DNA of 64,000 nucleotides from a virus (IMGVR_UViG_3300030333_002703:1-64000), one strand, 5' to 3'. Positions 1,450-47,251 are shown, numbered from the stretch's first letter. Numbers and translations: made by a program. Notes: generated by a model from the sequence alone, not told the origin.

Positions 1450-4431
1450 ATGACGGACCCGTTTGAGCAGGCGTTCCAGTCAGTTCGTAAGAGACAAAGT
1501 ACGTTACATGATTGGGATGATGATGCCATTGAAGATATCGGTCTCCCTCCTAAACCTCACCCTCAACATGGTGGTTATTCTGCTTTAGACCACAGCCTGC
1601 AAAATATCATTCTTCAAGCACGACCCGAAGCAGAAAAATTAGTTGAACAATGGGGAGAAAAAGTTCCATCTTGGATGGGATTAAATGCTGATGATTTCCA
1701 TGTTGTCACTTTACCCGGACATTTGGCTCATGAGGATTATGGTGGCGGTGAACGATACACTGGTCTAGATAGAACTGCCTTACAATCAAAAAGGAGAAAA
1801 AAATTGGAGGAGGGTGCTGACAGACCTGCGCCCCAACCATTCAAAACTCGTAGTGAAATGGCGGATTACCATAATATGCATGAATCAAGTCCAAGTGAAA
1901 CTTATTCTCAATCATGGATGATGGCTCCTATTCCTCACGCATTGGCAACTTTGATGCATCGTGGAATGCCATTTGACGAGGCTGCTAATAGAATCAAAAA
2001 TGGTTTGCATGACACCCACAAATATAAGGAAACGTACAAAGATAGCGAAGATATTCACAACTTTGTAGATGCAATTGGGAATACTCATGTTCCAATCGGA
2101 CATTTAACTATGAGAGGGCCAAGAGTATCTGAAATGTACATGACTAAATTGGGAGGAGAAGATGACAAATATGGACTTCAGCATCGAATTATGCCCAATA
2201 AAAGAATGCCTGTTATGGCAGGTTTAGGACTTGGAAGATTATTACAAGGTACTATGCTTCATAGATTAGGTTCAGATGCAATGGGTAGTGACAATCGTAC
2301 CATTTTTTCTGAAGGGCAAACTCAAGCCACTAAAACACAAGCAAAAGGCATACAACAACGTCTTAGAGAAAAATTGGAGGGAGCCGTTAGTTCAAGTCCT
2401 GCAGCAAGAGGTTTCCGAAGTCGAGCGCTTAATTTGAGAGACAAAATATCAGGCACATCTCGATTCGATGACCCAAAAAAGAAATTTGAAGAAACCATGT
2501 TTGCAGGATTGGTTCCGGGTTCTGTTGACGAACAAGATGCAACAAAAAATAGATTGATAAGCACACACGCGGCACAACTGGACTTAAGACCGGGGCCACA
2601 ATATGGAGTGGACCGAAAAACATGGGAAGATTTAGGTTGGGGAGATTTGAGACCTACATATGGCGCACAACATCATTTACCAAAAATAAACAGACCTGCA
2701 TCATCTCCGGTAAATCCTAATCCGAGTTTTAGTCAGAAGCCGTGGAGCAGAGAACATTTGCGACGACAACATCGTAATCTGTTAGAAAATAAATATGGTG
2801 AAGGTGATTGGCTCGATGATGCAGCGCGCAACTATAGACAACATGAAATGACACCCTTACCGCATGAGGTTGCAGAAGTACTGGGTTTGGACACTATGAA
2901 CCCCACATTGTCAACAACAATAGATGGTCAAAATGTTCCTTTAGCAAGATTACACGGCGACCCATACGTTTGGGATATACCAGAAGCACTAACAGAAAGA
3001 ATGAACAGACCTCAAGTAGTTCGTCAAATAAGAGATAGATTGCGTGATTTTGATGAGGGTGACAACGAATTGCCTGAAGATTATTTATATCAAACACAAT
3101 TGTCACAATGGCAACCGGGTGGTCGATTGCGGGAGAAAGAGCCATTTTTCGATGACCTTCCAGATGATATTGAAACTGGCGAACCGATGGAAATAGCGTA
3201 TCGTTTGTTAAAAAGCATCATGGATTTAGGCGCTGACGATGTTTCAACGCAACCAGAACAACCGTTACAAGCACCCGCCAATGTAATGGAAGAACCACCA
3301 AGAAAAGCATTGGGTATCATGGGTCATCATGATTGGCATGACCTTGAAAGATTCGATGACAAGATTGGAGAATGGATTGACATACACGGTATGCCAACTC
3401 ACATTGTATCGGATGGAAGCAGCGGCACAGGTGCAATGGCATCACAATGGGCGCTGGACAATGACATCCCAATTATTACTCACAAACCCAACTTCCGTGG
3501 TGGCAACCGATTCACTGCACCCGCACAAAGTCGGCAACGGATTGTCAATAGTTCTGACCATATTCTTGCATTCCCATCCATCAATGGTAGTGGTACAATG
3601 GAAGGTATCACAATGGCAAGGCAAGCGGGCAAACCAGTTCATTTGCATTACATTGAACACCCACATGATACGCCCATTAGCGAAGTAGGCACAGCCGAAG
3701 AACGAGAAAGACAAAGTCCGTGGTTGTTGGAACCAACGCCTGAACGCACATCACCTGAACCCGAAGTGCCACAAAGAACTCGCAGACAAGTGGGTGCAGC
3801 GCGCGGTCATCGCGGGCGACGTGATGACAATGTTGAAACGGGCGAGCCAATGGATATCTGGTCTCGTATGTTGAAAGAGGAACAAGGTGAGTGGGTTCCC
3901 GAAGAGCAACGTATGTCCGATGATGAATTGACTCACTTGCTAACATTCCCTGACTTACCTGAAGAAGTACGCGAAGATGTATTGCGAGAGATTCAACGTC
4001 GTCAAAATATCAATACAGGCGAACCAATGGATTTGTCATACCGTTTGTTGAAAGAAAGTATGATGGGAACAAAAGGTTGGCCCGAAGAAGAAGATGAAGA
4101 TGTATGTTGTAAAAATGCCAAAGCACATTACCGAGAAGTAGCAAATAATTCACCAGCAAAAACTTTCTTAGGTGGATGGAATAGTCCTAATGACCAGTAT
4201 ATGGAATGTGCCGAGTTTGAAATGTATCTCCGTGATGAAATCGAAGGTCTCCGAGATATGGCATCCATTCCAATGGTCGCTGACGCAATTACAGAATTAG
4301 AATCAGTATTAGACAATTGGGAACATTGTGATGAATACGATTTTAATGAATATGAAGAATTAAGACCTGAAGGTAGCGAAATCTTTACCGCAGGAGAACC
4401 TATGGACTTAGCGTGGAGGATGTTCAAATGA
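1450..4431 (+). CDS. 993-aa tagged polyprotein: possible GNAT-like domain, SLOG (YspA/DUF2493-like) domain, small helical and Cys-containing domains
   Basis: Five tag copies (N-term, 3172, 3835, 4012, C-term); SLOG pattern at 3301-3651 (GIMGHHDW, IVSDGSSGTGAMA, SDHILAFP..GSGT..GI..A...GKPV). Confidence 0.75.
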   Translation: MTDPFEQAFQSVRKRQSTLHDWDDDAIEDIGLPPKPHPQHGGYSALDHSLQNIILQARPEAEKLVEQWGEKVPSWMGLNADDFHVVTLPGHLAHEDYGGGERYTGLDRTALQSKRRKKLEEGADRPAPQPFKTRSEMADYHNMHESSPSETYSQSWMMAPIPHALATLMHRGMPFDEAANRIKNGLHDTHKYKETYKDSEDIHNFVDAIGNTHVPIGHLTMRGPRVSEMYMTKLGGEDDKYGLQHRIMPNKRMPVMAGLGLGRLLQGTMLHRLGSDAMGSDNRTIFSEGQTQATKTQAKGIQQRLREKLEGAVSSSPAARGFRSRALNLRDKISGTSRFDDPKKKFEETMFAGLVPGSVDEQDATKNRLISTHAAQLDLRPGPQYGVDRKTWEDLGWGDLRPTYGAQHHLPKINRPASSPVNPNPSFSQKPWSREHLRRQHRNLLENKYGEGDWLDDAARNYRQHEMTPLPHEVAEVLGLDTMNPTLSTTIDGQNVPLARLHGDPYVWDIPEALTERMNRPQVVRQIRDRLRDFDEGDNELPEDYLYQTQLSQWQPGGRLREKEPFFDDLPDDIETGEPMEIAYRLLKSIMDLGADDVSTQPEQPLQAPANVMEEPPRKALGIMGHHDWHDLERFDDKIGEWIDIHGMPTHIVSDGSSGTGAMASQWALDNDIPIITHKPNFRGGNRFTAPAQSRQRIVNSSDHILAFPSINGSGTMEGITMARQAGKPVHLHYIEHPHDTPISEVGTAEERERQSPWLLEPTPERTSPEPEVPQRTRRQVGAARGHRGRRDDNVETGEPMDIWSRMLKEEQGEWVPEEQRMSDDELTHLLTFPDLPEEVREDVLREIQRRQNINTGEPMDLSYRLLKESMMGTKGWPEEEDEDVCCKNAKAHYREVANNSPAKTFLGGWNSPNDQYMECAEFEMYLRDEIEGLRDMASIPMVADAITELESVLDNWEHCDEYDFNEYEELRPEGSEIFTAGEPMDLAWRMFK

Positions 4432-6140: not shown

Positions 6141-6980
6141 GTGGCTGATTTCCGCGTGTATGAGGTTGGACCTCGTGATGGTCTACAAAATGCTTCATTC
6201 ACTACAACCACTGATGACAAAATACAACTCATTCGGTCACTTGCGAATGCAGGTTTAACCAATATGGAAGTGGGTTCGTTTGTACATCCCAAATTAGTTC
6301 CATCAATGGCAGATAGCGCAGAAGTGTTTGAAGAAATTGCAGACCTTGGTGATTTTTCTGTATTGGTTCCAAATGAGAAAGGATTAGACCGAGCGATTCG
6401 TGCAGGTGTTGAAAATTTCAACATTTTCTTTTCACCTTCCGAATCTTTCAATGCGCGAAACTTAAGACGTACACGTAAAGAAGCAATGATTGAGTATTTA
6501 CGAATGCTTGACAAAGTTCCTGACAGCAAAGTTCGAGTTTACCTTTCTGTGATATTTGGATGCCCATTTGAAGGAAAAATATCCGACGACATCATTTACG
6601 ATTCTATTTTGGAAGCCTCGCTTCTAGGAGATACAATTGTGCTATGTGATACCATTGGCACAGCAAATGAAAATGAAATAAACAAAATATGTGAATATGC
6701 TGAAGATTTCAAAGCGAACTTCGCTTTACATCTTCATCATAAACCTGAAAATGAAGAACGAGCATTGAACTTAATTGAAACTGCCATAGCCGGTGGAATC
6801 ACTGAAATTGATGCAAGCATTGGCGGAATGGGTGGATGTCCTTTCATCCCCGGTTCCAGTGGAAATGTAAGTACTGAAAAACTTCTAGACCTACCCGGTT
6901 TAGATTGTGGCCTTGATTATGATTCCTTGTTACCCGCACTTGAGTGGGTGCAACATAGGAAGAACAAGGTGACATTATGA
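6141..6980 (+). CDS. hmgL: Hydroxymethylglutaryl-CoA lyase (DRE-TIM family), auxiliary metabolic gene
   Basis: EVGPRDGLQN, GSFVHPK, FGCPFEG, DTIG, HLH, GGMGGCPF..GSSGNVSTE motifs. Confidence 0.9.
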   Translation: MADFRVYEVGPRDGLQNASFTTTTDDKIQLIRSLANAGLTNMEVGSFVHPKLVPSMADSAEVFEEIADLGDFSVLVPNEKGLDRAIRAGVENFNIFFSPSESFNARNLRRTRKEAMIEYLRMLDKVPDSKVRVYLSVIFGCPFEGKISDDIIYDSILEASLLGDTIVLCDTIGTANENEINKICEYAEDFKANFALHLHHKPENEERALNLIETAIAGGITEIDASIGGMGGCPFIPGSSGNVSTEKLLDLPGLDCGLDYDSLLPALEWVQHRKNKVTL

Positions 6981-7351: not shown

Positions 7352-7553
7352 TGATTCCTAGTAATCGCATTAATGCTTCAAGTTTAGGGTGGAAATCAGT
7401 GCCGATGCCATTTTCATCAGGTTTTTTTTCTTGTTCTTGTTCCCACGGTGCTTGAGGTGCAGAAGGCTCTACACGGTCCATATCTTCTGATACAACATCG
7501 TCAATATCGTCTTTGAGGAATGCCCATGCTTTTTCAATTGGTATGTTCATCAT
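7344..7553 (-). CDS. Small acidic protein with N-terminal tag
   Basis: MMNIPIEKAWAFLK; GGAGG RBS upstream of 7553. Confidence 0.7.
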   Translation of the reverse strand: MMNIPIEKAWAFLKDDIDDVVSEDMDRVEPSAPQAPWEQEQEKKPDENGIGTDFHPKLEALMRLLGIII

Positions 7554-8184
7554 ATTCTTGTCCTCCTTGTCCTCTAAGTTGATGTATCCAATAGTCACAT
7601 TTGTCAGCGATTTCATAATACAAGTTAAAATGTGGGTCGTCCATTCCTAACCTGTCAGCATTCCATGCTGATAAATCACCCATTTCCATCAATTTTTTTA
7701 TCATATGATTACGAAATTGTTCCCCTTCGGTAAGTGGCTCTCTTTGCATCATCGGGTCATTTTCTGATTCAAAAGTCAATTGTTCCACTCGTGGTGTAAT
7801 TCCTTCGATGTATTCTGCACCATCTATCATTCTATCAGGTTCGGTTTCATCGTAGTCATAATGTAAATCACCTACGTCAGGGTAACCTCGAAAGGTTGTA
7901 CGAGGCATTTTGATGATTGACCATGCTTTTTCAATTGGTTTGTATGTGCCACGTTCTTTGAAGTGACGTGCGCGGTTGTCGTGTGGATTTTCCAATGTGA
8001 CAGTATTGGCGCTGGTGTGAGATACGTCAGGGCCACCTTCCCCCATGATACCACGCTGACGGCGTTCTTGGTTGAGTTCTTCTCGGTATTTTACACGGTC
8101 AGGTGAGGATTCATATTTGGTATCGTATCGACGTTTATGCTCAAGCGCTTCTTTGGATTTGGCTCGCTTGACTAAGACCGTCAT
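7534..8184 (-). CDS. Two-part protein: basic HNH-like N-terminal domain + tag + acidic domain
   Basis: RR..G.MGEGGPDVSH...ENPHDNRARH resembles small phage HNH-like proteins; internal PIEKAWSIIK. Confidence 0.6.
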   Translation of the reverse strand: MTVLVKRAKSKEALEHKRRYDTKYESSPDRVKYREELNQERRQRGIMGEGGPDVSHTSANTVTLENPHDNRARHFKERGTYKPIEKAWSIIKMPRTTFRGYPDVGDLHYDYDETEPDRMIDGAEYIEGITPRVEQLTFESENDPMMQREPLTEGEQFRNHMIKKLMEMGDLSAWNADRLGMDDPHFNLYYEIADKCDYWIHQLRGQGGQEYDEHTN

Positions 8185-8237
8185 GGTATCGCCACATATA
8201 GAGTAGTTCATAACCTTCGCTGCCTTCGACCTATTAC

Positions 8238-8990
8238 ATGGGCCTCGTAGGTGTATTGGCTAAGGCTATTTCTGCCAAAGAATTAGAACTTGCTGCATCT
8301 GGTGGAATACCACCTCGTCTTGGTGGCGGTATGGTAGGTTCACAAGGCGTTGAACGTGGTGTCGAAGGTCGAACAGGTTACGGTTCTATTGAACCATCAC
8401 GTGCGTACCATCGAGCAATGAGCGGTGATTTGGGCGTTCCTAAGCCTGACCCATTGCGACCCGACGAAGGACATCATGACCGATTGGCTGAATTACTCAC
8501 CGAATTAGAACAAGCCGAGCGTAGAACTCGAAATGTGGGAGGCCCACCAAAACCTTGGGAAGAAGAACAACGCGGTGGCAGTCTAGGTCGCGCACTACGT
8601 CGTGAACATGGCGGTAGTCGTATGTTTGCTCAACCACCCGGTGGTGGAATGGGGCGTTCAATGCGTGGTGTTCAAACAGCAGATATCCCCGGCGCACCTG
8701 AAGCCACACCTTGGGAACGTGAAGAAGCAATGGGTAGTGACGAACCATCCATGACTGGTGTGCCACGCCCCGAGACATCTACTCCACCTAGTGGCCCACA
8801 AGGTCGTGGGTCAGGCGCAGTCGCAGTATCTTCACCCAGATTGAATATCACAGGGGATGCCGACCTTCCTGAATCATTGCGTGGAATTGATTTGAGTGCA
8901 TTACCTCCTGCTTTCCGTGCCAAACTACCAAAGATTGCTGGTAGTATGGCTGATAGACCTCGCGGAACGGGTCATCGTAGGCAAGAATGA
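8238..8990 (+). CDS. Gly/Pro/Arg-rich low-complexity protein
   Basis: 250-aa ORF; TCATAA element ~27 nt upstream; starts MGLVGVLAK|A. Confidence 0.7.
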   Translation: MGLVGVLAKAISAKELELAASGGIPPRLGGGMVGSQGVERGVEGRTGYGSIEPSRAYHRAMSGDLGVPKPDPLRPDEGHHDRLAELLTELEQAERRTRNVGGPPKPWEEEQRGGSLGRALRREHGGSRMFAQPPGGGMGRSMRGVQTADIPGAPEATPWEREEAMGSDEPSMTGVPRPETSTPPSGPQGRGSGAVAVSSPRLNITGDADLPESLRGIDLSALPPAFRAKLPKIAGSMADRPRGTGHRRQE

Positions 8991-9072
8991 AAACCCTTGC
9001 TAGGTAGGGCCTAGTTGGGTCGGGATGCGTTGTCTGTGGTTTCTCTCCCTCCTCCATCTCGGCCCACCCATT

Positions 9073-9147
9073 TGTATCAATAATAATCTGTATCATATGG
9101 ATAGATATTCTTCTGATATTATATCAGGATGATACATGATATTATCA
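9073..9147. promoter_or_regulatory. AT-rich array of TGATA/TATCA half-sites with two palindromes (putative operator or origin element)
   Basis: TGTATCA 9073 and 9089, CTGATA-TTA-TATCAG 9113-9127, TGATACA 9130, TGATA-T-TATCA 9137-9147. Confidence 0.45.
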
Positions 9148-9210
9148 ATACTGCCCAATGGAACAGTTTAATGGGCGAACACGCACCCGCTATATTGGGG
9201 AGAGACCCTT

Positions 9211-9807
9211 ATGATTGACAGCGGCGGAAGCGGAAGAAACAACGATGACATATTGAGAATCATGGGATTCATTGGATTTGTATCTGTTTTGGTAGGGGCG
9301 GCGGTAGCCGTTTTTGATACTAAAATGTGGTTACACAGTGATGATGCATATTCCAATGCAATGACATATGCAATGGGAGCATTTACCCTACAAGGAATGT
9401 CATTTTTCCTATACAAATTACTATTGCAGGACCAAATGGATGACAAAGCCAGTTGGACACGCACACAAAGAATGCGTGACCGCCGCCTTCAAGATATGCA
9501 ATCTCAATTCGCAAACGCGCAATTGGAACAAGAATTGAAAGTGCGTCAAATGACATTGGAACGTCAATTGGCATTGATGGAACAGAACCCAGAAGCGTAT
9601 ATGCAAATGATGGGCGGTACAAGTTTGGGCATTTTGGATGACCAATTTAGACCTGTAACACCATTCTCTGATGGTGGAACTGACGACTTCAATCCCCCGC
9701 CAACACATAAGCAAAAAACTGACCAACCAATTACATTGGGCGTAGATTACGGTAAAGATGAGGAAGAGGAACCCAAAAAAGACACCAAAAAGAAAGGTGA
9801 CAAGTAA
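9211..9807 (+). CDS. Membrane protein (2 TM + coiled coil)
   Basis: Two hydrophobic helices, then a Q/E/L-rich coiled coil and a charged tail. Confidence 0.75.
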   Translation: MIDSGGSGRNNDDILRIMGFIGFVSVLVGAAVAVFDTKMWLHSDDAYSNAMTYAMGAFTLQGMSFFLYKLLLQDQMDDKASWTRTQRMRDRRLQDMQSQFANAQLEQELKVRQMTLERQLALMEQNPEAYMQMMGGTSLGILDDQFRPVTPFSDGGTDDFNPPPTHKQKTDQPITLGVDYGKDEEEEPKKDTKKKGDK

Positions 9808-10043
9808 TGGGATGGATTTTCAGAACTCCAAGTGATGACGCAGTTGAAGGCACATTGCGTCAATTACACATGGCAAATCAAGTTGACCGTGTGTATGAGC
9901 GAACTTGGGGTTGGCTGAAAGCATTGGTATGTTCTCTTATTGCCATGATGGTCACATCTGGATTTGAATACTATACGGCTGAAAGTATTTACCATGAATC
10001 ATTGGTATGGTTGTATGATAAAATTGTAGGATTATTCGATTAG
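9807..10043 (+). CDS. Small membrane protein
   Basis: TAATG overlap; hydrophobic segment WGWLKALVCSLIAMMVTSGF. Confidence 0.7.
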   Translation: MGWIFRTPSDDAVEGTLRQLHMANQVDRVYERTWGWLKALVCSLIAMMVTSGFEYYTAESIYHESLVWLYDKIVGLFD

Positions 10044-10054
10044 GTGGTTATGTT

Positions 10055-10780
10055 GTGGTTGGCGCAGGTGGAACGGTACTCGTGGGTGCTGCCCTTTGGG
10101 GTAAGGAAATCTACGATTACTGGAAGCCCCGTCGTATTGGCGTATATGGCCCTCCGCAAGTTGGCAAAACGACACTCGACAGATACATGACGACACCCGG
10201 AGAAATGGAGGATATAGGAGATGACCAACGAACACGCCATTTCAAACGATTATTTGGTGACGGATATGTATTGCCGCACCCCACTCGAAAACGTATCCGA
10301 TACGATGGAAGCAAACGTGTCGTTCATTCCGCAGACCTTGGCGGCGACCAAAAGTTCTGGAGTTTGTGGATTGACGATATGGTGGATAGACAAGTCGAAG
10401 GTGTCATCTATATGTTCGATGACCGAGCCAAACAAGGTGGGTCAGGTGCAGTTGACGCAGTTGCCGGATTTGAGTTCCTCGTGGATGCAATCATCAATCG
10501 ACGTTACCGATACCGTCGTTGGAAAACTCGTTGGAAAGGCAAACGGTACACACCCGCATACATACAATTGGTCGCCAACAAAGCAGATAGATGGTGGGAT
10601 GAGCAAGCCAGTGTATTGTGGCAACAACAACGATTGCGTGAACACAAGATATTTGATGCATTCAGACCTGCCATGATTAAATTACAAAAAGCCGGAGTAG
10701 TATGTAGAGTATCAATGATGGCAACCAGAATAGGATGGAATGTAGAACACACTTTGATTAAGATGTTAGCCCAAGAATGA
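10055..10780 (+). CDS. Arf/Sar-like small GTPase (Ras superfamily P-loop)
   Basis: G1 GPPQVGKTT, G3 DLGG followed by ..FWSLW, GVIYMFDD strand, G4 ANKAD, G5-like MATRIG.NV. Confidence 0.8.
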   Translation: MVGAGGTVLVGAALWGKEIYDYWKPRRIGVYGPPQVGKTTLDRYMTTPGEMEDIGDDQRTRHFKRLFGDGYVLPHPTRKRIRYDGSKRVVHSADLGGDQKFWSLWIDDMVDRQVEGVIYMFDDRAKQGGSGAVDAVAGFEFLVDAIINRRYRYRRWKTRWKGKRYTPAYIQLVANKADRWWDEQASVLWQQQRLREHKIFDAFRPAMIKLQKAGVVCRVSMMATRIGWNVEHTLIKMLAQE

Positions 10781-10789
10781 TGTGATAAA

Positions 10790-11770
10790 ATGTTTAGTCG
10801 AAAACCGCAATATCAAACCCCGTTGGCAATGAGTACCCAAGCAGAACTTGTTCGTTTGGCTGCTGAAACCAATATGAACACACAGCAATTACAACAAACT
10901 GCACAAGTTCAAGGTGCGATGCAATATGCTGCAGAGCAACAACAGCATATCGAAATACCCAAAGTCAACTTCTTTCCGAGCCAGCATCCAAATCCACGCA
11001 AGCGTCGGCGTCAAGATATCAAACAAGCATACCGATTACTCAAACCAATGAAGCGTCGTTGGTGGTCTCCACGACGTTGGCTATGGGGTGGTAAATACCG
11101 CTATGCGAAAAATACGGCACAATGTGTTGTAGATGGTTGCGATGTGGATAAACTGCTACGAACTGTTGGTAATGTGTACAATGATATTTATGATGAAGAT
11201 ACAGGAAAATCATTGTGGGAGATGTATTTCATGGACCCAGTCACAGAGCAACCACGTGCATTTTTGGCACGTGAAGGTGTAACAAGTGGGCGCACATTGA
11301 CTGGAACATATTGCCCAGAACATTTGCATTTGTATCATTTGTTATGCAAATGGGAAGCCGAAGAAGAACAAGAAAAAGAAGCACGGACTGGCACGTTGAA
11401 AGACAAATTGAAGCGTGGTGTATCCACCGTATCTGTTCCAATTTCAGTCGTGAAAAAGAAAGACAACACACCGGAACAATTGCTGAAGTATGAAGAGTTC
11501 TTCCGAATGTGTCGTGCAGATGGTATCCCTATCGCTCATTTCAAAAACAAAGAAACAGGATTGAATGATATTACAGTTATCACATTCGACGCACGGCAAT
11601 ATAGGCCCACAGGCGACCATAGCCCATTGCTATCAGTAGGAACTGAACCAAGTATTATGCAACAATTGGCTCAAGCCCCCGCAGGTAGCGGTTTGCAGGT
11701 CTTATTAAACGAGGCGCAACAACAAGAAGCGCAATTTGATGCGCCGGAGGTTCCTACACAAGTGTCATGA
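10790..11770 (+). CDS. Hypothetical protein with probable Zn-binding Cys/His motif
   Basis: CVVDGC ... YCPEH; Q-rich termini. Confidence 0.75.
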   Translation: MFSRKPQYQTPLAMSTQAELVRLAAETNMNTQQLQQTAQVQGAMQYAAEQQQHIEIPKVNFFPSQHPNPRKRRRQDIKQAYRLLKPMKRRWWSPRRWLWGGKYRYAKNTAQCVVDGCDVDKLLRTVGNVYNDIYDEDTGKSLWEMYFMDPVTEQPRAFLAREGVTSGRTLTGTYCPEHLHLYHLLCKWEAEEEQEKEARTGTLKDKLKRGVSTVSVPISVVKKKDNTPEQLLKYEEFFRMCRADGIPIAHFKNKETGLNDITVITFDARQYRPTGDHSPLLSVGTEPSIMQQLAQAPAGSGLQVLLNEAQQQEAQFDAPEVPTQVS

Positions 11771-11790
11771 ACTAATGATGCATCCGAGGA

Positions 11791-12444
11791 GTGAGTAACA
11801 TGGTATGGCCGTTCAGTAATAATCAGCAGCAACAAACCAATGGGGCGTTGTCTTTGGGGAGAACAGACCACCCCCAATTCAATACACAACAACAAGCACA
11901 AGCACCAGTATGGGGTGCAGGTCCAGCAGCAGGACAACAACAACCAAATCCATTTTTGGTCGGTTTGGCAGGGCAAAATGCAGCAAACTATGCAGCGCAA
12001 CCTATCGCACCACCATCTGAAATGGAAATCTTGGCAATGTTGTTGCACCATCAGACACCTGTAGACCGATTTTTGTCTGGTCCGAATCTAAATCTATTGG
12101 TTAGCATTATTGCGAATATCGTCAATTTATCATTGGTGGAATTTTTTCGCAATGTCAAGTTCACTGAAGATGACGATGGAAAGTTAGTCGTTGATGTGGC
12201 AGCATTACCAACACAATATCAAACATTGTCTGCAGAAAATGTGACAGCGGATTTGAACTCTCTACAAGCATCGTGCAATCAAGCAGTTCAAAAATCATTG
12301 ACTGACCAACAACAAGTATTGCAGATGGCACAAACTTCAATGATGCAAGGGGCATTAGACGCCGCATTAGCCGACCCCGGATTCCTAGAAAAGATTGGAG
12401 GCGCAGTTGGCGCAACGGCTCGCGGATTAACAGGGATGAGATGA
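11791..12444 (+). CDS. Gln-rich hypothetical protein
   Basis: 217-aa ORF in operon; Q-rich N-terminus, C-terminal glycine-rich amphipathic segment. Confidence 0.75.
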   Translation: MSNMVWPFSNNQQQQTNGALSLGRTDHPQFNTQQQAQAPVWGAGPAAGQQQPNPFLVGLAGQNAANYAAQPIAPPSEMEILAMLLHHQTPVDRFLSGPNLNLLVSIIANIVNLSLVEFFRNVKFTEDDDGKLVVDVAALPTQYQTLSAENVTADLNSLQASCNQAVQKSLTDQQQVLQMAQTSMMQGALDAALADPGFLEKIGGAVGATARGLTGMR

Positions 12445-12707
12445 ATATGATACCACAACAAGGACCGAAAGCAGCCGGTGGACTCACCGGGTCTGTAGCA
12501 CATGGCTGGAAAGTAATGCATGACACACCACACGATGTAATGATTGACCTAATTATGGTTCAAGTCATATCATTGCTTTTGGGCGCATTCATTTTATTGG
12601 CAACGCAAGGACACAAAATGAAATCCAACGAACTTACATGGGTCGTTGCCATCGTGATGGTGTTCTTCACATTGACCGGAATGGTATATCGTCGGTTATC
12701 GCGTTAG
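12441..12707 (+). CDS. Small 2-TM membrane protein (holin-like topology)
   Basis: Two hydrophobic helices and a basic C-terminus (YRRLSR). Confidence 0.7.
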   Translation: MNMIPQQGPKAAGGLTGSVAHGWKVMHDTPHDVMIDLIMVQVISLLLGAFILLATQGHKMKSNELTWVVAIVMVFFTLTGMVYRRLSR

Positions 12708-12961
12708 CGCTTCCATTTGTTTAATGGGCAACTGGCCGACGGTAAGCCCACTTTTTGGCGCATGAAGCATCCACACGCATTGCATCGCTTTCCATCGAAT
12801 GCTTCACATCCTTGGCACGTTTGCATTCTTTCGACTGCAATTTCGGCAGGAACAGACCGCCCCAGTACTTTGTCAATAGCGGCTCCTGTGAGTCCTTTCA
12901 ACGTATCCATATTGACAGGAACGCCCGCAATACGAGGAGATGCACGTGGTAATCTGCCCAT
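12704..12961 (-). CDS. Small Cys-rich protein (DUF6171-like, putative metal/Fe-S binding)
   Basis: R..TCQGC....RCNACGCF...K......CPLNKW pattern common in aquatic viruses; start inferred. Confidence 0.7.
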   Translation of the reverse strand: MGRLPRASPRIAGVPVNMDTLKGLTGAAIDKVLGRSVPAEIAVERMQTCQGCEAFDGKRCNACGCFMRQKVGLPSASCPLNKWKR

Positions 12962-13008
12962 ATTACGCACAGGAAGGTTCAATTCATGAATCTATCTACG
13001 ACCATTTG

Positions 13009-13716
13009 ATGGCGGAGCGTATCACTCGAAAATCTTGCCCGTTTTGCGTCTGCGATGAACGTGATGCATTGGAAGAAGATTTGCTAAATGGCGTTATGAC
13101 ACCAAAGCAATTGGACAAAAAAATGGGGTGGCGAGAAGGTACATCAGACCGCCATTTTAGAAACCACATGGGTGAATATCATATGGGGTCTAATTCTGAA
13201 TGTCCGGTATGTACATCTGACCAACGACAAGAACTGGAGTTCCGATATTGTAACGAAGGTTTGCCATCTCCTGAAATTGCAGAAATGTTGGGTTGTGCAG
13301 AATCAACAGTGTATCATCACATGAAGCACCATCTCAAACCCATTGTCAAAGCATCTGCCGCACCAATTATTGCATTGGCCGCAGGTGAAGAGATTGAACA
13401 ATTGCGTAAAAACGCGGAACGTATCAATGGTGAATTGGCATTGATGTTGGATGACGCTGACCGCAATGACCCACAATATGTTCGCAATCTGACAGGTCTT
13501 AGTAAAGAAGTTCGTGAAACTGTGAAAGATATTTTGAAGATTCAAGAACGTGCTGGTGTTGCTGGTGCTGAAGCCACAATGAAAGCAGATACGATTAACA
13601 TTCTAAAGATTGAACTGGCGAAAGAATCACCAGATGTATGGCGTCGTGTGCGCCAAACCCTCATGAACACCGAAGAAGGTGATGAGGTTGTAGATGTGGA
13701 GGTGAATGAAGAATGA
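13009..13716 (+). CDS. Duplicated Zn-finger/HTH DNA-binding protein with coiled coil; candidate terminase small subunit
   Basis: Two repeats CPxC..R..LE..HTH..HxxxH followed by helices; upstream of TerL; start at MAERITRK inferred. Confidence 0.55.
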   Translation: MAERITRKSCPFCVCDERDALEEDLLNGVMTPKQLDKKMGWREGTSDRHFRNHMGEYHMGSNSECPVCTSDQRQELEFRYCNEGLPSPEIAEMLGCAESTVYHHMKHHLKPIVKASAAPIIALAAGEEIEQLRKNAERINGELALMLDDADRNDPQYVRNLTGLSKEVRETVKDILKIQERAGVAGAEATMKADTINILKIELAKESPDVWRRVRQTLMNTEEGDEVVDVEVNEE

Positions 13717-14144
13717 AACAAAACTTTGTAGGTATTCCGGTATCGGAATTGATGTGTGTGGACTTACCCACAGCATATGTATTGACAGAAGAAGGACCAT
13801 TGCATGAAAATGAATTGGATGTATTTTTCAATACATTGCAGGTAAGTGTAGGTGTATGGGCTGATTTCTTGACCCGTATTACAGATAGTCCTGAAAATTG
13901 GGCGAAGCCTCGCCATGAGTTTGTAGATATGTTACAAGAAAAAATGTATCAGGTATTCCAAGAAGATGACCCGATGTTAGCGTGGCCGTTGCGTCAAAAA
14001 TTAGCGCTAATGGTTGACCAATTTGATGAAATGGCTGATGAAATGGCGCGACCATTCACAGGTCCACATACAATTCGGGACTTTTACCACAATCTAGCCA
14101 GTCGAGTACGAGCAACATTTGAGGAAATAATGAACGGTGAGTAA
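13713..14144 (+). CDS. Hypothetical protein
   Basis: 143-aa ORF with ATGA overlap and GGAGGTG RBS. Confidence 0.75.
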   Translation: MKQNFVGIPVSELMCVDLPTAYVLTEEGPLHENELDVFFNTLQVSVGVWADFLTRITDSPENWAKPRHEFVDMLQEKMYQVFQEDDPMLAWPLRQKLALMVDQFDEMADEMARPFTGPHTIRDFYHNLASRVRATFEEIMNGE

Positions 14145-14856
14145 TATGAATCCAATGGAGGTCGCTTGGTTGGTGTTAAAAGCCCCGTTGGAAGGGTATG
14201 ACTCAAACCTCACTGATGAGGAGAATACTGCTCGTCGCCAACCTCAACAACCTACCATTACTGATTTCACCAGATACACTAGACCTCAATTAGAACAAAT
14301 GGTTGTCATGTTCCAAAATGAATTGATGCGTCGTGGACACGCATCTCTTTCATCTGAAATATCAATTCCAAATATGGACAGATATATGAGTGGTGAAGGA
14401 GGGTATCAACGAGAAGAACTTGATGCCGCACCTACAATACCAACTGATGAACTAGGCGAAGCGATTCTGACAGAAATGACGCCTGAAGAACACGCACAAG
14501 AGATACAGAGATTAATGACGCAATTGATGAGTGGGGAAACATTGTCACCTGAAGAATTACTATTTTTACAACAAGATGGCCCAGAAACACAACAACAAGC
14601 ACGTGACGCTATTTGGAGTAATTATGATGCAGTTGAATCAACTACACCAACAGCAACAGTTCGCGCAGGACTACCGGCAACTACACCAACAGCAACAGAT
14701 ATCCCTACTGATGATGCGGTACGGCAGATACTCAATAGTCATGGTATCGAACATCATCTAATTGAACCTCACCACATAAGGCAATATCAAGGATTTTATC
14801 GAATGATGAGGCGGCATCCAACAGAAGAAGAAATAGATGCACACATAGGTGATTAA
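14137..14856 (+). CDS. Tagged protein with PIP-box-like motif
   Basis: MNPMEVAWLVLK|A; QPTITDF at 14248-14268. Confidence 0.75.
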   Translation: MSNMNPMEVAWLVLKAPLEGYDSNLTDEENTARRQPQQPTITDFTRYTRPQLEQMVVMFQNELMRRGHASLSSEISIPNMDRYMSGEGGYQREELDAAPTIPTDELGEAILTEMTPEEHAQEIQRLMTQLMSGETLSPEELLFLQQDGPETQQQARDAIWSNYDAVESTTPTATVRAGLPATTPTATDIPTDDAVRQILNSHGIEHHLIEPHHIRQYQGFYRMMRRHPTEEEIDAHIGD

Positions 14857-15868
14857 CATGAATCCACTAGAAATTGCATGGGTGATGTTGAAAAATGACC
14901 GTGGTGATGTATTGGAACGTGTTCTTAATTTAATTGAAAGTCCTGCAAATCGAGATATATCGGATGAAGAATTGGCATCAGAATGGGAAAGATTATTGCT
15001 AGGAGTTGGACAGGCTTACAATGTATCACCACATGATGTTGACCGTACATTAGGAACTCATTTTATCACAGATGAAGGTTCGGAACCTGACCATGAATTG
15101 GGTCATACTGAATTGGATAGTTTGAAACCACAATTAGAAGAATTACTGCATGATATGTTAGATACTGGATTGCATTTCAATGCACCACAACGGCGCGGCG
15201 CGGTTACGACGAGCGCCCCCGCGTACCAAAACCCGCCGACGGCGACGGCGAGGCCAGCGGAACGACCCGAGCACGACCTCGGCAATCCAGCAGCCAACGC
15301 CGCCGTCGCGCGAGACCGTGGATTACCATATGATGAGTATGACCCCGGATGGATGCCCCCTATATGTGAAGAGTGTGACGACGCTGATGATACAATGTAT
15401 GGAGGTCGTGACCCAGATACGGGCGAACCATTGTATGTATGCGCTTACTCGGGTCACGACGACTACAATTACGAGCATTTGTACGATGATTACGGATATT
15501 TGTGGATGGATGGTGAAGGTTATTTGACTACACCATTGACACCGCCAGACCCTGCAGAGTATGATTCTCATGATAATTCAGAACGCGGCGACCCTCGACC
15601 AATGACAAATCGTGCCGCCCTCCGCGCGCTCGGTGTCCGTCCGGCTCCCGGTGAGGAAATCCGCCCCGATGCCCGACAAACTGTACCGGGTCTACCTATA
15701 CCATTGACGGCAGCAAGTCAAGGTGAAGGTCGTGTAGGTCCTGATGTCATGGATGAACGTGAGTTAATGCGTTATGAAGCACCACAATTGCGAGAAATGA
15801 TTCGACGTATTGGTGAAGAATTGACACGGCGTGGTTATGGTGATAGATACCAAGGGGTGACTGAATGA
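14849..15868 (+). CDS. Tagged mosaic protein with Zn-ribbon-like motif and GC-rich inserts
   Basis: MNPLEIAWVMLK; CEEC...C..GH; shares RY..PQL..M...EL.RRG module with the upstream gene. Confidence 0.75.
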   Translation: MINMNPLEIAWVMLKNDRGDVLERVLNLIESPANRDISDEELASEWERLLLGVGQAYNVSPHDVDRTLGTHFITDEGSEPDHELGHTELDSLKPQLEELLHDMLDTGLHFNAPQRRGAVTTSAPAYQNPPTATARPAERPEHDLGNPAANAAVARDRGLPYDEYDPGWMPPICEECDDADDTMYGGRDPDTGEPLYVCAYSGHDDYNYEHLYDDYGYLWMDGEGYLTTPLTPPDPAEYDSHDNSERGDPRPMTNRAALRALGVRPAPGEEIRPDARQTVPGLPIPLTAASQGEGRVGPDVMDERELMRYEAPQLREMIRRIGEELTRRGYGDRYQGVTE

Positions 15869-20517: not shown

Positions 20518-21957
20518 TTGCATCCTGACGATGCAATGGCTGATGTCATTAGTGAAATTGATTTTGAAATGAGCAAGCGCGATTTTCAATTTTTCTTTGA
20601 AGATATCTGCGGTTGGCAATTGGCTAATCATCATGAAAAATGGGTCCATAATCTGCAATCACACAATCGGTATTGTGTGAAGGCGTCACGTGACCACGGT
20701 AAATCTGTATGTTTCCTATCGTATCTACTATGGAAGGTATGTTTCTTCCCCAATACAGATGCTATGATTTTCAGTCATTCTCTTGACCAAACTATTCGCC
20801 ATATGCGATTCTTGAATGATATGATAGAAAGCATTCCCATGCTAAATCGTATGAAAAAGCGTGATTCATGGGCCAAGACTTACTTTGGATTCACCAATGG
20901 TTCGCGTATCAGTGCGAAATCGGTTGGTGGTGGTGTTCGTGGCGCTCACCCTGACATCATTCTATGTGACGATATTTTGTGGGGAACCACCGATACAGAA
21001 CTAAAGCGTGTCGCATCGTGGTTCTATGAAGTTCTAGTACCATGTTTGCACCACACATCGCAACTATGTATTGTAGGTACACCGTTCACACCCACTGACT
21101 TGTACACAGAACTTGAAGAAAAACCCGGTTATTTGGTGGAAACGTATCCTGCGTTAAATGCACAAGGTGAACCATTATGGCCTGAACGATGGGATTTGGA
21201 AGCGTTAGATGCGCGACGTAGAGATATGCCAGCAGTAGCATTCACACGTGAATATCTGTGTGAGCCAATTGATGATGCATCTAGTCTATTCCCAACTTCA
21301 ATTTTAACACCATGTGAATCTCGTAATCATATTTTGCATGACCGCGAATTGACACCAATGGAAGGTGGAGATGATGGCGACCAGTATTTCATAGGCTGGG
21401 ACCCGGCCATTTCATCTGACCGTCAAGCCGATTATACAGTAATGACAGTGTTACGTCGGCCCGCACAAGAGCCTAATCAATTAGAAATTGTACATATTAC
21501 TCGGCGTAAAGGTATGGATTTCCGTACCCAAATTATGGAGATTCAACGATTGAATAGTAAGTTCAGACCTGACGTAATTGAACTGGAAGCCAATCATTTC
21601 CAACGTGTATTTGCTACAGAGTTACGTGAAAATACAGACCTGCCCATCAAAACATTCATCTCTTCTAAAACCAAACGTGAATCATTATTGATGGGATTGG
21701 TGTTGAAGTTTGAGCGCGAACAAATGACGTTACCCATTGGTGATGACCGTTCTCGTGACTTGATTGCAGAACTCAAAACTGAACTATTGTTATTCGGTAT
21801 GTCGAAGAAAGGGAAGTTGGAAAGTATTGGCCGACACGATGATATGGTGATTTCACTTGCGTTGGCACATTGGGCTACAACAGAGTTCCGTGAACGTATT
21901 ATTGATTTAGATGAACTCGGTGATGATATATTCCCAGAAAGCGTACTAGGATTGTGA
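20518..21957 (+). CDS. terL: Terminase large subunit
   Basis: Walker A SRDHGKS, Walker B IILCDD, GTP motif C, RNase H nuclease IGWDPA...E.N..Q...HDDMVISLALA. Confidence 0.92.
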   Translation: MHPDDAMADVISEIDFEMSKRDFQFFFEDICGWQLANHHEKWVHNLQSHNRYCVKASRDHGKSVCFLSYLLWKVCFFPNTDAMIFSHSLDQTIRHMRFLNDMIESIPMLNRMKKRDSWAKTYFGFTNGSRISAKSVGGGVRGAHPDIILCDDILWGTTDTELKRVASWFYEVLVPCLHHTSQLCIVGTPFTPTDLYTELEEKPGYLVETYPALNAQGEPLWPERWDLEALDARRRDMPAVAFTREYLCEPIDDASSLFPTSILTPCESRNHILHDRELTPMEGGDDGDQYFIGWDPAISSDRQADYTVMTVLRRPAQEPNQLEIVHITRRKGMDFRTQIMEIQRLNSKFRPDVIELEANHFQRVFATELRENTDLPIKTFISSKTKRESLLMGLVLKFEREQMTLPIGDDRSRDLIAELKTELLLFGMSKKGKLESIGRHDDMVISLALAHWATTEFRERIIDLDELGDDIFPESVLGL

Positions 21958-21961
21958 TAAA

Positions 21962-23455
21962 ATGTGGGGTAGTATTCTTGTGGGCGATGATTACGATGTC
22001 CCATTTGATATGACAGGTCTTGATTTAGATGTCATGGAAATATGCGGGCAATTATCTCAACATCCACTATTGAAATCCCCTCCGCCACAACAAGGTCAAT
22101 CTATTATGGGCGCACCTCAAAATGAAAATCCTGCAACACCGGATGTTGCTGGAGGTCAATTGACACCTCAACAAACGCCGAAAGATTTACCCGGTCAAGA
22201 ATCTGATGAACAAAAACGTATCAAAGAATTGGCAGGGCAATTGACCCAGAAATCAGAACAAAAATTAGCAAGTGAATCTTCGATTGGTTGGTTTGATTCT
22301 ATGGGTCGTAGTGCTGAATCCATTGTCAAAGACCTCAAAATGGCACGACGCGATAACAAAGTAATCAAAGAAGAGATTGACGATTTGATTGACGCTGTTC
22401 GATTGATGAAGCGTATGGAAATTGATTCTACTCTCAAAAGATTATCATGGGCTAGTGGACACCATGATACCATCAAAGCATTAGGATTGTCAGACCGAGA
22501 TTTACAATCATTGCAGAAATATGGTGAAACCCGTAAATCATCCTTATTACGAGCCTGTTTAGAATATGAAGCAGCAACAGAACGTATTGATACATTGACT
22601 TCCAATATGGATGATTGGACTAGCATGGAAAAACAAGCATGGGTTGAATCTCATAATGACCGTGACGCAGCCAAAAAATCATGGACTACTTGTTTGCACA
22701 CTCTTGACACATTGAATAAATCAGAAATGTCATGGTTACAATTAGCATCTCAAGAATTGGAATTGAACGGTAGTATGGATACTCGCACTATTGTAGGCAA
22801 TATGATAGAGAAAGGACAACCTGCTAAGAAACTATCTGTGAACAAATTAGGTGCATTGATGAAAACATACGGGGATGAAGTAGGGATTATCAAAGGCGTC
22901 AAACGAGGCGAATGGATGATACGCAAACGAGATGGGTCATTGGTTATCAAAGACCCTTGGGCATATGCAGCCGGATTCATTGATGCTGACGGATACATCA
23001 CCATCACAAAACGTGGTGAACCTCGTGTAGGTTTGGTCGCAACAGGTGAACGTGGTCGTATCCATTGTGAGCAATTAGCCAAAACTTTAGATTGTGGCGT
23101 TTTACAATTAGACCTCAAGGTGTACAAAGATGCACAACGGTCACAACATCGGCTTCAATTCTACTCAAAAAATGACATTGCCAAAATACTCAAAGGGATT
23201 CTCCCACATCTCCAATTGAAAAAAGGCCAAGCGCAATCTGTATTGGAATATATTGCGACTCCGCACAAAGGAGATATTGCTAAACAACGCAGACAACAAT
23301 TGGAAAAATTGGTTAAATGGGACAATTGGTCAGACAAAAAGGCTGATGAACTACTCAATGAGTGGGGGATTACCGAAGGTGACATTGAATCGTGGCGCGA
23401 CCCCACTCTCATGAGATTGGCGGTCGATGTTGAACGATTGACGGAGGCGATATGA
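21962..23455 (+). CDS. Protein with C-terminal LAGLIDADG endonuclease-like domain
   Basis: YAAGFIDADGYI; ILPHLQLKKGQA typical of LAGLIDADG domains; long helical N-terminal region. Confidence 0.8.
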   Translation: MWGSILVGDDYDVPFDMTGLDLDVMEICGQLSQHPLLKSPPPQQGQSIMGAPQNENPATPDVAGGQLTPQQTPKDLPGQESDEQKRIKELAGQLTQKSEQKLASESSIGWFDSMGRSAESIVKDLKMARRDNKVIKEEIDDLIDAVRLMKRMEIDSTLKRLSWASGHHDTIKALGLSDRDLQSLQKYGETRKSSLLRACLEYEAATERIDTLTSNMDDWTSMEKQAWVESHNDRDAAKKSWTTCLHTLDTLNKSEMSWLQLASQELELNGSMDTRTIVGNMIEKGQPAKKLSVNKLGALMKTYGDEVGIIKGVKRGEWMIRKRDGSLVIKDPWAYAAGFIDADGYITITKRGEPRVGLVATGERGRIHCEQLAKTLDCGVLQLDLKVYKDAQRSQHRLQFYSKNDIAKILKGILPHLQLKKGQAQSVLEYIATPHKGDIAKQRRQQLEKLVKWDNWSDKKADELLNEWGITEGDIESWRDPTLMRLAVDVERLTEAI

Positions 23456-32303: not shown

Positions 32304-32355
32304 TATTGTAGTATCATAGGTGGTATCATATACCATTACAACACGTGGTGTGCCA

Positions 32356-33748: not shown

Positions 33749-34891
33749 ATGGCACGAGATTATATCCGAACAATACAGGACATGGAGCGATACTATTACG
33801 GCGCAGGTAACGTAAGTGGCTACTCATACAGTGGCGCAGACATCCTCAAGGCCGATGCACCGCTTCTAAGCACGACAGCAGGAACATACCAAGCAATCTA
33901 TGGTCGCAAGGTCTGGTCGCAACTGAACCAAGAGTTCAACGCATTCAGCATTTTGCCCAAGAAGCCTTGGGAGAAGAGTGGTTGGAGAATCATTACCTCT
34001 AAGCCATCGTTCACCAAGGGTGGCGGTGTTGCGGAGAATGCAACCCTTCCTGACACGACCAAACCAACCTTCCTACACGTGGCTGCAAAGCCCAAGACGG
34101 TTGCTCACACATTCGATATGAGTGAAGTGGCAATCTTCCTTGCCGACAAGGACGACGGCCTCGGTGACATCCGACAGGTATTGAAGGAAGAAATGGGTAA
34201 GCACCACGCAGACCACGTGAACGTAATGCTCACAACTGACGTGGAAACACCAGCCGGTAACGATTTCGAGTCTCTTGACCGATTGACAACCAACCCATCA
34301 ACCATCAACAACGCGAACAGTTACGTGTCAGCAAACACTGACAACGATATGTACTCGATTACACGTGACAGCGGTGGAGATGCATGGGAGGCTGCTGAAG
34401 TCAGCGCATCAGGAACAAAAGGCACTAACCGAACATTGAGCCTTGACCATCTTGATACCATGTTCCAGCAAATCTGGACTCGTGGTGGTAATCCAAAGGT
34501 CATGTTCACTGGCTATGACACACTCATGCGTGTTCAGCAACTACTACAGACCCAGCAGCGCTTCATGGAAACCAAGCGTGTCACCCCATCGTTCAACGGT
34601 GTAAAGGGTGTACCCGGTATCGAAGCAGGATTCATTGTGGCTACCTACAACGGTGTCCCAATCATCCCAAGCAAGGACGTACAAACTGACGGCATCAGTC
34701 GTATCTACTACCTCGACACGGATTATTTGTGGTTCCAAACCGCAATTCCAACCCAGTACTTTGAGAGCGGTATTGAATCCGGCGACCCATTCGCCATCAA
34801 CCGCCTCGGTCAGGAAGGTCTGTATCGAACAATGGGTGAACTGATTGTGTCTTTCTACGGCGCACAGGGGAGTGTTCGTGACCTCTCGTGA
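33749..34891 (+). CDS. Major capsid protein (HK97 fold)
   Basis: Follows protease; 380 aa; G.V.E.A.LP E-loop region, YNGVPIIPS; codon usage of a highly expressed gene. Confidence 0.9.
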   Translation: MARDYIRTIQDMERYYYGAGNVSGYSYSGADILKADAPLLSTTAGTYQAIYGRKVWSQLNQEFNAFSILPKKPWEKSGWRIITSKPSFTKGGGVAENATLPDTTKPTFLHVAAKPKTVAHTFDMSEVAIFLADKDDGLGDIRQVLKEEMGKHHADHVNVMLTTDVETPAGNDFESLDRLTTNPSTINNANSYVSANTDNDMYSITRDSGGDAWEAAEVSASGTKGTNRTLSLDHLDTMFQQIWTRGGNPKVMFTGYDTLMRVQQLLQTQQRFMETKRVTPSFNGVKGVPGIEAGFIVATYNGVPIIPSKDVQTDGISRIYYLDTDYLWFQTAIPTQYFESGIESGDPFAINRLGQEGLYRTMGELIVSFYGAQGSVRDLS

Positions 34892-47247: not shown

Positions 47248-47251
47248 TATT

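Follow-up and report, generated by a model that had tools for sequence, protein, structure and literature searches.

A conserved operon of Magrovirales-like marine viruses encodes a divergent small GTPase together with membrane proteins

The viral DNA IMGVR_UViG_3300030333_002703:1-64000, the whole 64,000-nucleotide stretch of which is referred to here as the window, carries six open reading frames (ORFs) on the + strand at positions 9211-12707, which encode proteins of 198, 78, 241, 326, 217 and 88 residues (g1 to g6). The six genes make up a single operon, conserved among Magrovirales-like tailed viruses of the sea, and its third product, g3, is a bona fide small GTPase of the Ras superfamily, predicted from its motifs and its structural model to be competent for nucleotide binding. 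A preliminary description of the locus had proposed a six-gene viral operon around an Arf-like small GTPase; the ORFs are indeed found at these coordinates, and further along the + strand follow the genes for terminase, portal, protease and major capsid protein. The operon and its flanking features are, in order along the DNA:

9070-9210, + strand: putative promoter/operator region 5' of the operon, AT-rich and intergenic, its elements read from the sequence
9211-9807, + strand: g1, 198 residues, membrane/coiled-coil-like protein (ORF, hydropathy, family conservation)
9807-10043, + strand: g2, 78 residues, protein with a weak transmembrane (TM) segment (ORF, hydropathy, family conservation)
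10055-10780, + strand: g3, 241 residues, divergent Ras-superfamily small GTPase (motif conservation, AlphaFold2 model, profile comparison)
10790-11770, + strand: g4, 326 residues, virus-only protein (ORF, AlphaFold model, conservation)
11791-12444, + strand: g5, 217 residues, Gln-rich protein (ORF, family conservation)
12441-12707, + strand: g6, 88 residues, protein with two TM segments (ORF, hydropathy)
12704-12982, - strand: g7, 92 residues, Cys-rich DUF6171/phrog_13558 protein (Pfam PF19668, phrog_13558)
12940-13716, + strand: g8, 258 residues, helix-turn-helix (HTH; sigma-70 region-4-like) protein with Cys clusters (sub-threshold HTH matches, PHROG DNA-binding families)

A divergent small GTPase

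All G motifs that had been claimed for g3 are present: G1 as GPPQVGKTT at residues 32-40 (G32-x4-G37-K38-T39, which fits the P-loop pattern GxxxxGK[ST]), DLGG at 94-97, FWSLW at 101-105 and ANKAD at 174-178. A G5-like MAT is found at residues 222-224. Conservation was counted across 182 distinct homologues, every one of which retains G37, K38, T39, T60, D94, G97, W102, L104, W105, N175, K176 and D178, while the G5-like residues A223 and T224 are kept in 179 and 181 of them, respectively. The G3 and G4 residues are invariant also in the 14-sequence deep alignment A3, and the motif set as a whole is far beyond chance. The invariant Thr60, which is located in an R-T-x-H motif and aligns with the switch-I Thr of Arf in the HMMER alignment to 8oun, is a candidate for the G2 residue that would bind Mg; Thr47 is likewise invariant, and the candidate G2 region is modelled poorly, with predicted local distance difference test (pLDDT) values below 55.

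The AlphaFold2 model of g3 (pLDDT 72.8, predicted template modelling score 0.74) has the strand and helix order of a G domain, a fold made of a six-stranded sheet and five helices. A Foldseek search of the model against the PDB returned at least 500 matches at E ≤ 0.001, the top ones being small GTPases throughout, led by Rab27B (E 3e-07), Rab1b, RhoD and H-Ras. In an exhaustive VIA-align scan, 159 chains reached Z ≥ 8; the best was an Asgard RagA-like GTPase (Z 14.1, root mean square deviation (rmsd) 3.7, 170 residues aligned), followed by SR-beta (13.3), RagD (13.2), Arl2 in a tubulin-cofactor complex (13.2), Arf6 (13.0), G-alpha (12.6), Sar1 (12.4) and Arl13B (12.0). Since the top Z scores are tied within about 1, the fold places g3 in the Arf/Sar/SR-beta/Rag/G-alpha part of the superfamily and assigns it to no single family. 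The structure thus groups with Ras-like GTPases, and no affinity to a non-Ras-like P-loop fold, which would have spoken against the preliminary description, was seen.

At the level of sequence g3 has diverged so far that curated family models miss it. It has no match among Pfam (E ≤ 1), PHROG or NCBIfam models, and none in the GenBank phage collection; searches of PDB sequences with the single sequence and with the A1 profile gave nothing significant, the best G-protein being 8oun at E 0.17. The mixed deep profile A3 did reach Arf-like PDB chains (8oun, Arl8/Arl10), however, this match is not independent, because A3 contains Arf-positive members. Of 34 close homologues, 12 have a Pfam Arf match below threshold (best E 0.033), ten a sub-threshold Roc match, and two each a sub-threshold SRPRB or Gtr1_RagA match. 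The most distant members, P0203 and P0206, exceed the Pfam Arf cut-off of 22.3 with 36.2 and 25.5 bits, SRPRB being second. In hhalign comparisons the A1 profile aligned with three Asgard Arf-like proteins at a probability of 93.6% (E 2.2e-07, 130 columns), as compared with 69.4% (E 4.3e-05, 77 columns) for three Rab-like proteins of the same Asgard genome, a rough test in which each reference set holds just three proteins. Beyond its own viral clusters, the neighbours of g3 in the ESM Atlas are bacterial clusters with Pfam Arf, which we regard as a lead only.

The family itself is well populated in the sea: marine metagenomes contain 471 homologue clusters at ≥60% identity, some of them located on contigs of 100-150 kb, and a few homologues have been automatically named 'GTPase SAR1 family protein' by JGI. 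It is also isolated, since a HMMER profile of 34 homologues retrieved only 88 proteins at E ≤ 0.001 from 1.84 billion representatives. Full-length distant members share one layout, i.e., a hydrophobic N-terminus followed by G1, D-x-G-G, a basic loop, NKxD and SA.

Among characterized GTPases, the Arf/Arl/Sar1 family (PF00025) resembles g3 in its G-domain fold, in being the best profile-profile match and in having an N-terminal helix directly before strand 1, and the g3 pattern D-x-G-G-[Q/E/D]-x-[R/K]-F-W-x-L-W recalls D-V-G-G-Q-x-x-x-R-x-L-W of Arf. The hydrophobic N-terminal helix of the preliminary description is borne out by the AlphaFold2 model, which has a helix at residues 4-23, and by a uniformly apolar stretch over the first 16 residues (mean hydrophobic moment 0.11, mean hydrophobicity 0.61, A+G+V 61%). 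Residues ~13-24 are amphipathic (moment 0.42-0.45) and provide an aromatic/basic belt after the apolar stretch; the Kyte-Doolittle (KD) maximum of the N-terminus in a 19-residue window is 1.35. As judged from its composition, the N-terminus is an apolar Gly/Ala/Val-rich anchor (residues 1-23) and not the amphipathic switch helix of Arf and Sar. Position 98, at the site of Arf Gln71, is Gln in 94, Glu in 62, Asp in 23 and His in 3 of the homologues, and Asp in the protein of the window. Further differences from Arf are ~19 additional residues between G1 and G3, with an invariant T-P-G-E-M in addition to R-T-x-H, a conserved polybasic/aromatic loop at 148-168 between helix 3 and strand 5, and an additional helix between G4 and G5. 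The anchor, the interfacial aromatic/basic belt and the polybasic loop are conserved together in the family. Membership of the Arf family proper thus fails, because the Pfam threshold is missed, the N-terminal helix is apolar and the catalytic Gln is variable; the part of the earlier assignment that stands is a Ras-like GTPase nearest to Arf, Sar, SR-beta and Rag, for which 'Arf-like' is a fair description of the resemblance.

SR-beta (PF09439) offers the closest architecture, with an N-terminal hydrophobic anchor followed by an Arf-related G domain. The g3 model aligns with SR-beta 2fh5_B at Z 13.3 (rmsd 3.3, 163 residues aligned) and with three further SR-beta chains at Z 12.6, 11.8 and 11.2; g3 differs in its shorter anchor of ~16 apolar residues and in missing the Pfam SRPRB cut-off. 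SR-beta is a eukaryotic protein, held in the membrane by an N-terminal TM segment, that partners SR-alpha. Pfam and PHROG scans of the module proteins detected no partner of the SR-alpha/SRX, signal recognition particle (SRP) or longin type. Rag/Gtr1 proteins, including Asgard LokiRagO (8yl2), supply the top structural match, however, g3 is without their C-terminal roadblock/longin dimerisation domain, and the tied Z scores give no specific affinity to Rag. The mimivirus Rab (5xc5, Z 11.4) is likewise a virus-encoded GTPase of the Ras superfamily. The Rabs of giant viruses, which infect eukaryotes, closely copy those of their hosts, whereas g3 represents a virus-specific family that has diverged deeply, is encoded by a tailed virus of prokaryotes and has conserved partners of its own. 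We regard g3 as a new branch of Arf-like GTPases, specific to viruses, whose conserved partners include membrane proteins and a protein of novel fold.

The operon, its conservation and the virus

Neighbouring ORFs in the operon overlap or lie at most 20 nucleotides apart: the stop of g1 and the start of g2 share position 9807, the gaps g2-g3, g3-g4 and g4-g5 are 11, 9 and 20 nucleotides, and g5 and g6 overlap by 4 nucleotides. Ribosome-binding motifs similar to GGTGA or GGAGG are located 5-8 nucleotides 5' of most starts, and the ribosome-binding-like motif GGGGAGAG lies 6 nucleotides 5' of the g1 ATG. On the upstream side the operon is bounded by an AT-rich intergenic stretch of 220 nucleotides, which contains the 7-1-7 palindrome CTGATAT-T-ATATCAG at ~9114-9128 and a TATA-like CTATATT at 9190-9196; this region before g1 is a putative promoter/operator.

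With the GTPase, a relative of which is encoded by 243 contigs, 80 IMG/VR loci were retrieved, and their synteny was assessed by tblastn. The genes g2, g3, g4, g5 and g8 are present in all 80 loci, g7 in 79, g1 in 78 and g6 in 56, and gene order is identical in 80/80. The 24 loci in which tblastn does not detect g6 have an ORF of ~80 codons in its place, with two predicted TM segments (a single one in two of the 24). The gene upstream of the operon (8238-8990) is kept in just 3 of the 80 loci, so that the conserved block starts at g1. Its 3' boundary is marked by g7, a convergent minus-strand gene that lies in between g6 and the HTH gene g8; g7 scores 27.8 bits against the PF19668 cut-off of 27 and matches phrog_13558 at E 1.5e-14, and g8 is the first gene of the next conserved late block. 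Even in a distant lineage (L088-L091), in which the GTPase is ~33% identical, the core order of g1 to g5 is retained as a g1-like gene, an ORF of 72-79 codons, the GTPase, a g4-like gene and a Gln/Met-rich protein, which measures 246-272 residues in L088 and L091. The neighbours are thus syntenic both in the 80 loci and in deep relatives, as the preliminary description would require, and this fixed order argues that the six genes form one functional unit.

In the distant lineage, a gene for a Cpn60/TCP-1 chaperonin (E 1e-133 to 1e-140) is located just upstream of the module, at 3250-4785 in L088 and 2820-4481 in L091, with one or two small ORFs before the g1-like gene.

GTDB genomes yielded only three matches to g3, on contigs of 8-16 kb (NZMJ01000140.1, JABLTJ010000060.1 and NZQM01000026.1; L085, L086 and L087) binned as Maricaulis, an Asgard ('Promethearchaeati') metagenome-assembled genome (MAG) and Parvibaculum, respectively. 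The viral module is complete on all three, which are therefore almost certainly magrovirus-like DNA binned in error; the three organisms were dropped as hosts, and claims on the hosts or gene content of these MAGs should leave the contigs out.

With g3 are co-encoded at least three proteins with membrane segments and two soluble virus-only proteins. The proteins g2 to g6 belong to no family in Pfam, PHROGs, NCBIfam or PADLOC, and for g1 there is no Pfam family above cut-off and a weak match to phrog_9146, a family of unknown function. The preliminary description made g1 a coiled-coil protein with two TM segments and g2 a protein with one. For g1, one strong TM segment (17-35, KD 2.5) and a Met/Gln-rich, helical, coiled-coil-like stretch were found, followed by a Lys-rich tail, however, the second membrane segment (~47-70) is conserved but only moderately hydrophobic and is not secured. 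The membrane segment of g2 (~37-50) is borderline (KD maximum 1.53), although its hydrophobicity is kept across the family; g2 has an N-terminal conserved motif, MGW-hydrophobic-F-basic-TPSDD, and a short C-terminal tail. In g6 the two TM segments, at 37-55 and 65-83, are clear, as had been predicted, and a protein of the same type is encoded at this place in loci where g6 itself escapes tblastn; a short basic C-terminus follows, and size and topology are holin-like.

The soluble protein g4 (44-70% identity) matches the GTPase in conservation and belongs to a large family of 648 homologue clusters, all unnamed and without Pfam domains. Its Gln/Ala-rich helical N-terminus precedes a core at ~65-200 (pLDDT > 90) and a disordered C-terminus. 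Fold searches gave no match of note (Foldseek against the PDB, best E 2.7; wide VIA search, best Z 4.9 and restricted to the N-terminal helices), the ESM Atlas held no usable match, and the confidently predicted core is thus without a known fold as far as the model can tell. The zinc binding that had been ascribed to g4 is weakly founded and not established, because only C112 and C175 are invariant when distant relatives are included, and C115, H178 and H180 are not. Prediction of a complex between g3 (20-241) and g4 (55-275) scored 0.00 against a mark of 0.32, a value that says nothing either way. The fifth protein is Gln-rich, as previously described; its start is more likely the ATG at 11800 (214 residues) than the GTG at 11791. 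A Gln-rich low-complexity N-terminus is followed by a conserved APPSEMEI-like motif, a hydrophobic helix at 100-118 and a Gln/Met-rich, Gly-rich C-terminus. The g5-like protein of L088 ends in a CxxC...CxxC knuckle, which the g5 of the window does not have.

Downstream of the operon, the + strand encodes tailed-virus proteins: a T4-type large terminase (20518-21957), with 26% identity to its best GenBank phage matches, a portal (23452-25383), an S78 prohead protease (32320-33747) and an SU10-type major capsid protein (33749-34891). The head genes are followed by those for a tail-tube-like protein and for a protein whose C-terminal segment is tape-measure-like. The relatives span 101-118 kb, and one of them has direct terminal repeats. 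A family-B polymerase (PolB) is encoded by all, and its best matches in the GenBank phage set are Halorubrum tailed viruses. Between portal and protease, a 1904-residue protein (26589-32303, + strand) contains an ATP-dependent DNA ligase domain at ~1451-1547 (E 1.4e-05); a ligase embedded in the structural module has been noted for magrovirus groups A and B, whereas that of the window belongs to a very large fusion protein. A further gene on the + strand, at 6141-6980, encodes a 279-residue HMG-CoA lyase (Pfam HMGL-like E 2.4e-25; PRK05692 238 bits against a cut-off of 246). Since archaeal isoprenoid lipid synthesis starts from HMG-CoA, this enzyme could conceivably be linked to the membrane module, which lies 2 kb further downstream. 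An HMG-CoA lyase auxiliary gene has been reported for Aoguangviridae (PMC10768690), and the embedded ligase, a PolB nearest to that of haloviruses, the HMG-CoA lyase and chaperonin are published magrovirus traits (PMC5434244, PMC10768690).

The hallmarks of Magrovirales that are present comprise a structural block with embedded ligase, PolB, which in this group is part of an archaeal-type replisome, and a marine source. The DNA recurs in marine metagenomes of several studies, and the sequencing runs listed for the operon include no RNA data set; the genome sizes of the relatives compare with ~90-110 kb expected. PCNA_N was not found by Pfam in related complete genomes. The virus looks like a member of Magrovirales, a placement that is based on shared traits. 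Because it carries these traits, its host is probably an archaeon of the Poseidoniales (MG-II), and the archaeal host of the preliminary description is plausible in the light of the published hallmarks (PMC5434244, PMC10768690).

Possible functions of the operon

We propose that the operon encodes a GTPase-switched membrane machine for timed disruption or remodelling of the host membrane in virion release, a reading to which we assign a probability of slightly below two in five. The G domain would be held at the cytoplasmic face of the host membrane by the apolar anchor, the interfacial belt and the polybasic-aromatic loop, and g3 would act as a GTP/GDP switch, one nucleotide state of which would recruit or release the soluble g4 and g5. 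Recruitment or release of these two would gate the small membrane proteins g1 and g2 and the holin-sized g6 with its two TM segments, and the output would be a late disruption or remodelling of the host membrane that leads to release of the virions. Hydrolysis of GTP, set by a partner, could serve as the timer; dependence on a partner is suggested by the variable catalytic Gln. Late action would follow from the position of the operon, which opens a co-directional conserved block running into the packaging and head genes. A precedent is ArvA, an archaeal small GTPase that brings about membrane vesiculation with two partners from its operon (PMC10927574). An endolysin may be dispensable, since the host presumably lacks a murein wall. 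From the sequence a role in egress or lysis is plausible; its more specific formulation as GTPase-gated egress or membrane reshaping of magroviruses, with an anchored Arf/SR-beta-like nucleotide timer, viral membrane proteins and a novel-fold partner, we consider doubtful.

Like holin cassettes, the operon has small membrane proteins of 78-198 residues beside late genes, and g6 has the layout of a class II holin. Unlike them, it contains no known holin or endolysin family (Pfam, PHROGs and PADLOC recognize no holin or lysin family in the six proteins), and conservation of its core genes far exceeds that usual for holins. To our knowledge, there is no lysis cassette with a small GTPase. A role in defence or anti-defence was considered and dropped, as there is no PADLOC match and the module is core rather than accessory.

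Several observations weigh against a release machine. The apolar stretch of ~16 residues is short for a full span of the membrane, and the anchor could be monotopic or buried. Lysis cassettes tend to be hypervariable, and the conservation of the core (GTPase 59-80%, g4 44-70%) is unusual for them; it would fit an essential role in assembly or replication equally well. Position beside structural genes is no proof of late expression, and the host, too, is one that we infer. In addition, a chaperonin gene stands beside the distant modules, and Philosof et al. place the chaperonin in the replicative cluster. The anchored SR-beta-like GTPase could instead provide a membrane docking platform that recruits viral complexes for replication, head assembly or membrane-protein insertion. 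The SR-beta-type architecture (Z 13.3, 12.6, 11.8 and 11.2, and SRPRB in second place in distant members), the very high conservation of g3 and g4, which suits an essential core function, and the chaperonin gene that abuts the module in distant lineages are all consistent with such a platform, however, no SR-alpha/SRX-like or SRP-like partner was detected and the holin-sized g6 would be unexplained. Assembly and replication of tailed viruses are, as far as we know, not dependent on membranes, and we consider the platform unlikely. Were g3 instead a soluble regulator of translation, packaging or signalling, with its N-terminus packed on a partner and the membrane genes as independent accessories, the short apolar segment and the weak sub-threshold MMR_HSR1, GTP_EFTU and Roc matches of some members would be accounted for; the fixed six-gene order in 80/80 loci and in deep relatives and the joint conservation of anchor, aromatic/basic belt and polybasic loop make this improbable. 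The variable Gln71 position and the failure of all curated family models could also point to a pseudo-GTPase, a scaffold devoid of catalysis and perhaps no longer able to bind nucleotides. The residues called invariant across the 182 homologues, namely the P-loop Lys/Thr, the G3 Asp/Gly, NKxD and the G5 Ala, are a signature of selection for GTP binding, and true GTPases can lack the catalytic Gln, Sar1 having a His, which leaves the scaffold a very slim chance.

A related possibility is suggested by ArvA, an archaeal small GTPase of Euryarchaeota with an Arf-like predicted structure that drives membrane vesiculation with two operon partners, one of which is a Zn-ribbon protein (PMC10927574). 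The viral operon resembles ArvABC (OapABC) in that small partner proteins, one of them Cys-rich, are encoded after a GTPase whose N-terminal helix is membrane-active; it differs in its three added membrane proteins and its apolar anchor, and the likeness of g3 and ArvA is drawn from the published description of ArvA. On this model the viral GTPase would drive or take over the formation of vesicles, or remodel the envelope, without lysis, as in receptor shedding, decoy vesicles or superinfection exclusion. In favour of it are the similar pairing of an Arf-like GTPase with a Cys-bearing downstream protein (PMC10927574) and a review which speculates that viruses could exploit an ArvA-type GTPase (PMC10791045). 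However, the module proteins have no Pfam match at E ≤ 1 to OapC/DUF2072 (PF09845) or DUF2073, and PF09845 is absent from one complete related genome, with Haloferax and Methanocaldococcus controls positive. Moreover, the ArvA helix is amphipathic and the viral anchor apolar, and Mills et al. find ArvA mostly in Halobacteriota, Methanobacteriota and DPANN. On balance, manipulation of the ArvA type seems unlikely.

For the exit of tailed archaeal viruses, pyramids, budding and undefined membrane disruption are listed in review (PMC10791045), and the abundance of magroviruses is comparable to that of cyanophages and pelagiphages (PMC5434244). For magroviruses we know of no proposed egress genes. 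The magrovirus papers and the archaeal egress review that were searched do not mention the GTPase or the operon; homologues of g3 have been labelled automatically as GTPases by public pipelines, and the module itself is undescribed in this literature. Being universal in the sampled lineage and combining a switch with membrane proteins, the operon is a concrete, testable candidate for egress. It widens the range of Arf-like GTPases to viruses of prokaryotes, would be the second case in the archaeal world, after ArvA, of a small-GTPase operon likely to act on membranes, and bears on the origin of GTPase-driven membrane dynamics before eukaryotes. If the proposed release function is true, the operon would represent a new kind of release machine in abundant archaeal viruses of the surface ocean, and an independent viral branch of a membrane-remodelling logic otherwise seen in eukaryotic trafficking and archaeal ArvA.

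Other genes of the window

Upstream of the operon, a 993-residue protein (1450-4431, + strand) has a weak SLOG (YAcAr) match and a match to phrog_289, 'GTP-binding domain', at 617-744, and could give the virus a second protein that binds nucleotides. The peptide P-[IML]-E-x-A-W-x-x-[LI]-K recurs near the ends of unrelated proteins encoded at 7534-8211 (- strand), 14137-14856 (+ strand) and 14849-15868 (+ strand); none of the six operon proteins contains it. Between terminase and portal, a 497-residue protein (21962-23455, + strand) has an HNH endonuclease-like region at 333-436 (phrog_5046, E 7e-08). The genes for the tail-tube and tape-measure-like proteins are followed by one uninterrupted frame (47186-64000, + strand) that runs off the window; with 5605 codons or more, it is extraordinarily large for a virus of ~110 kb.

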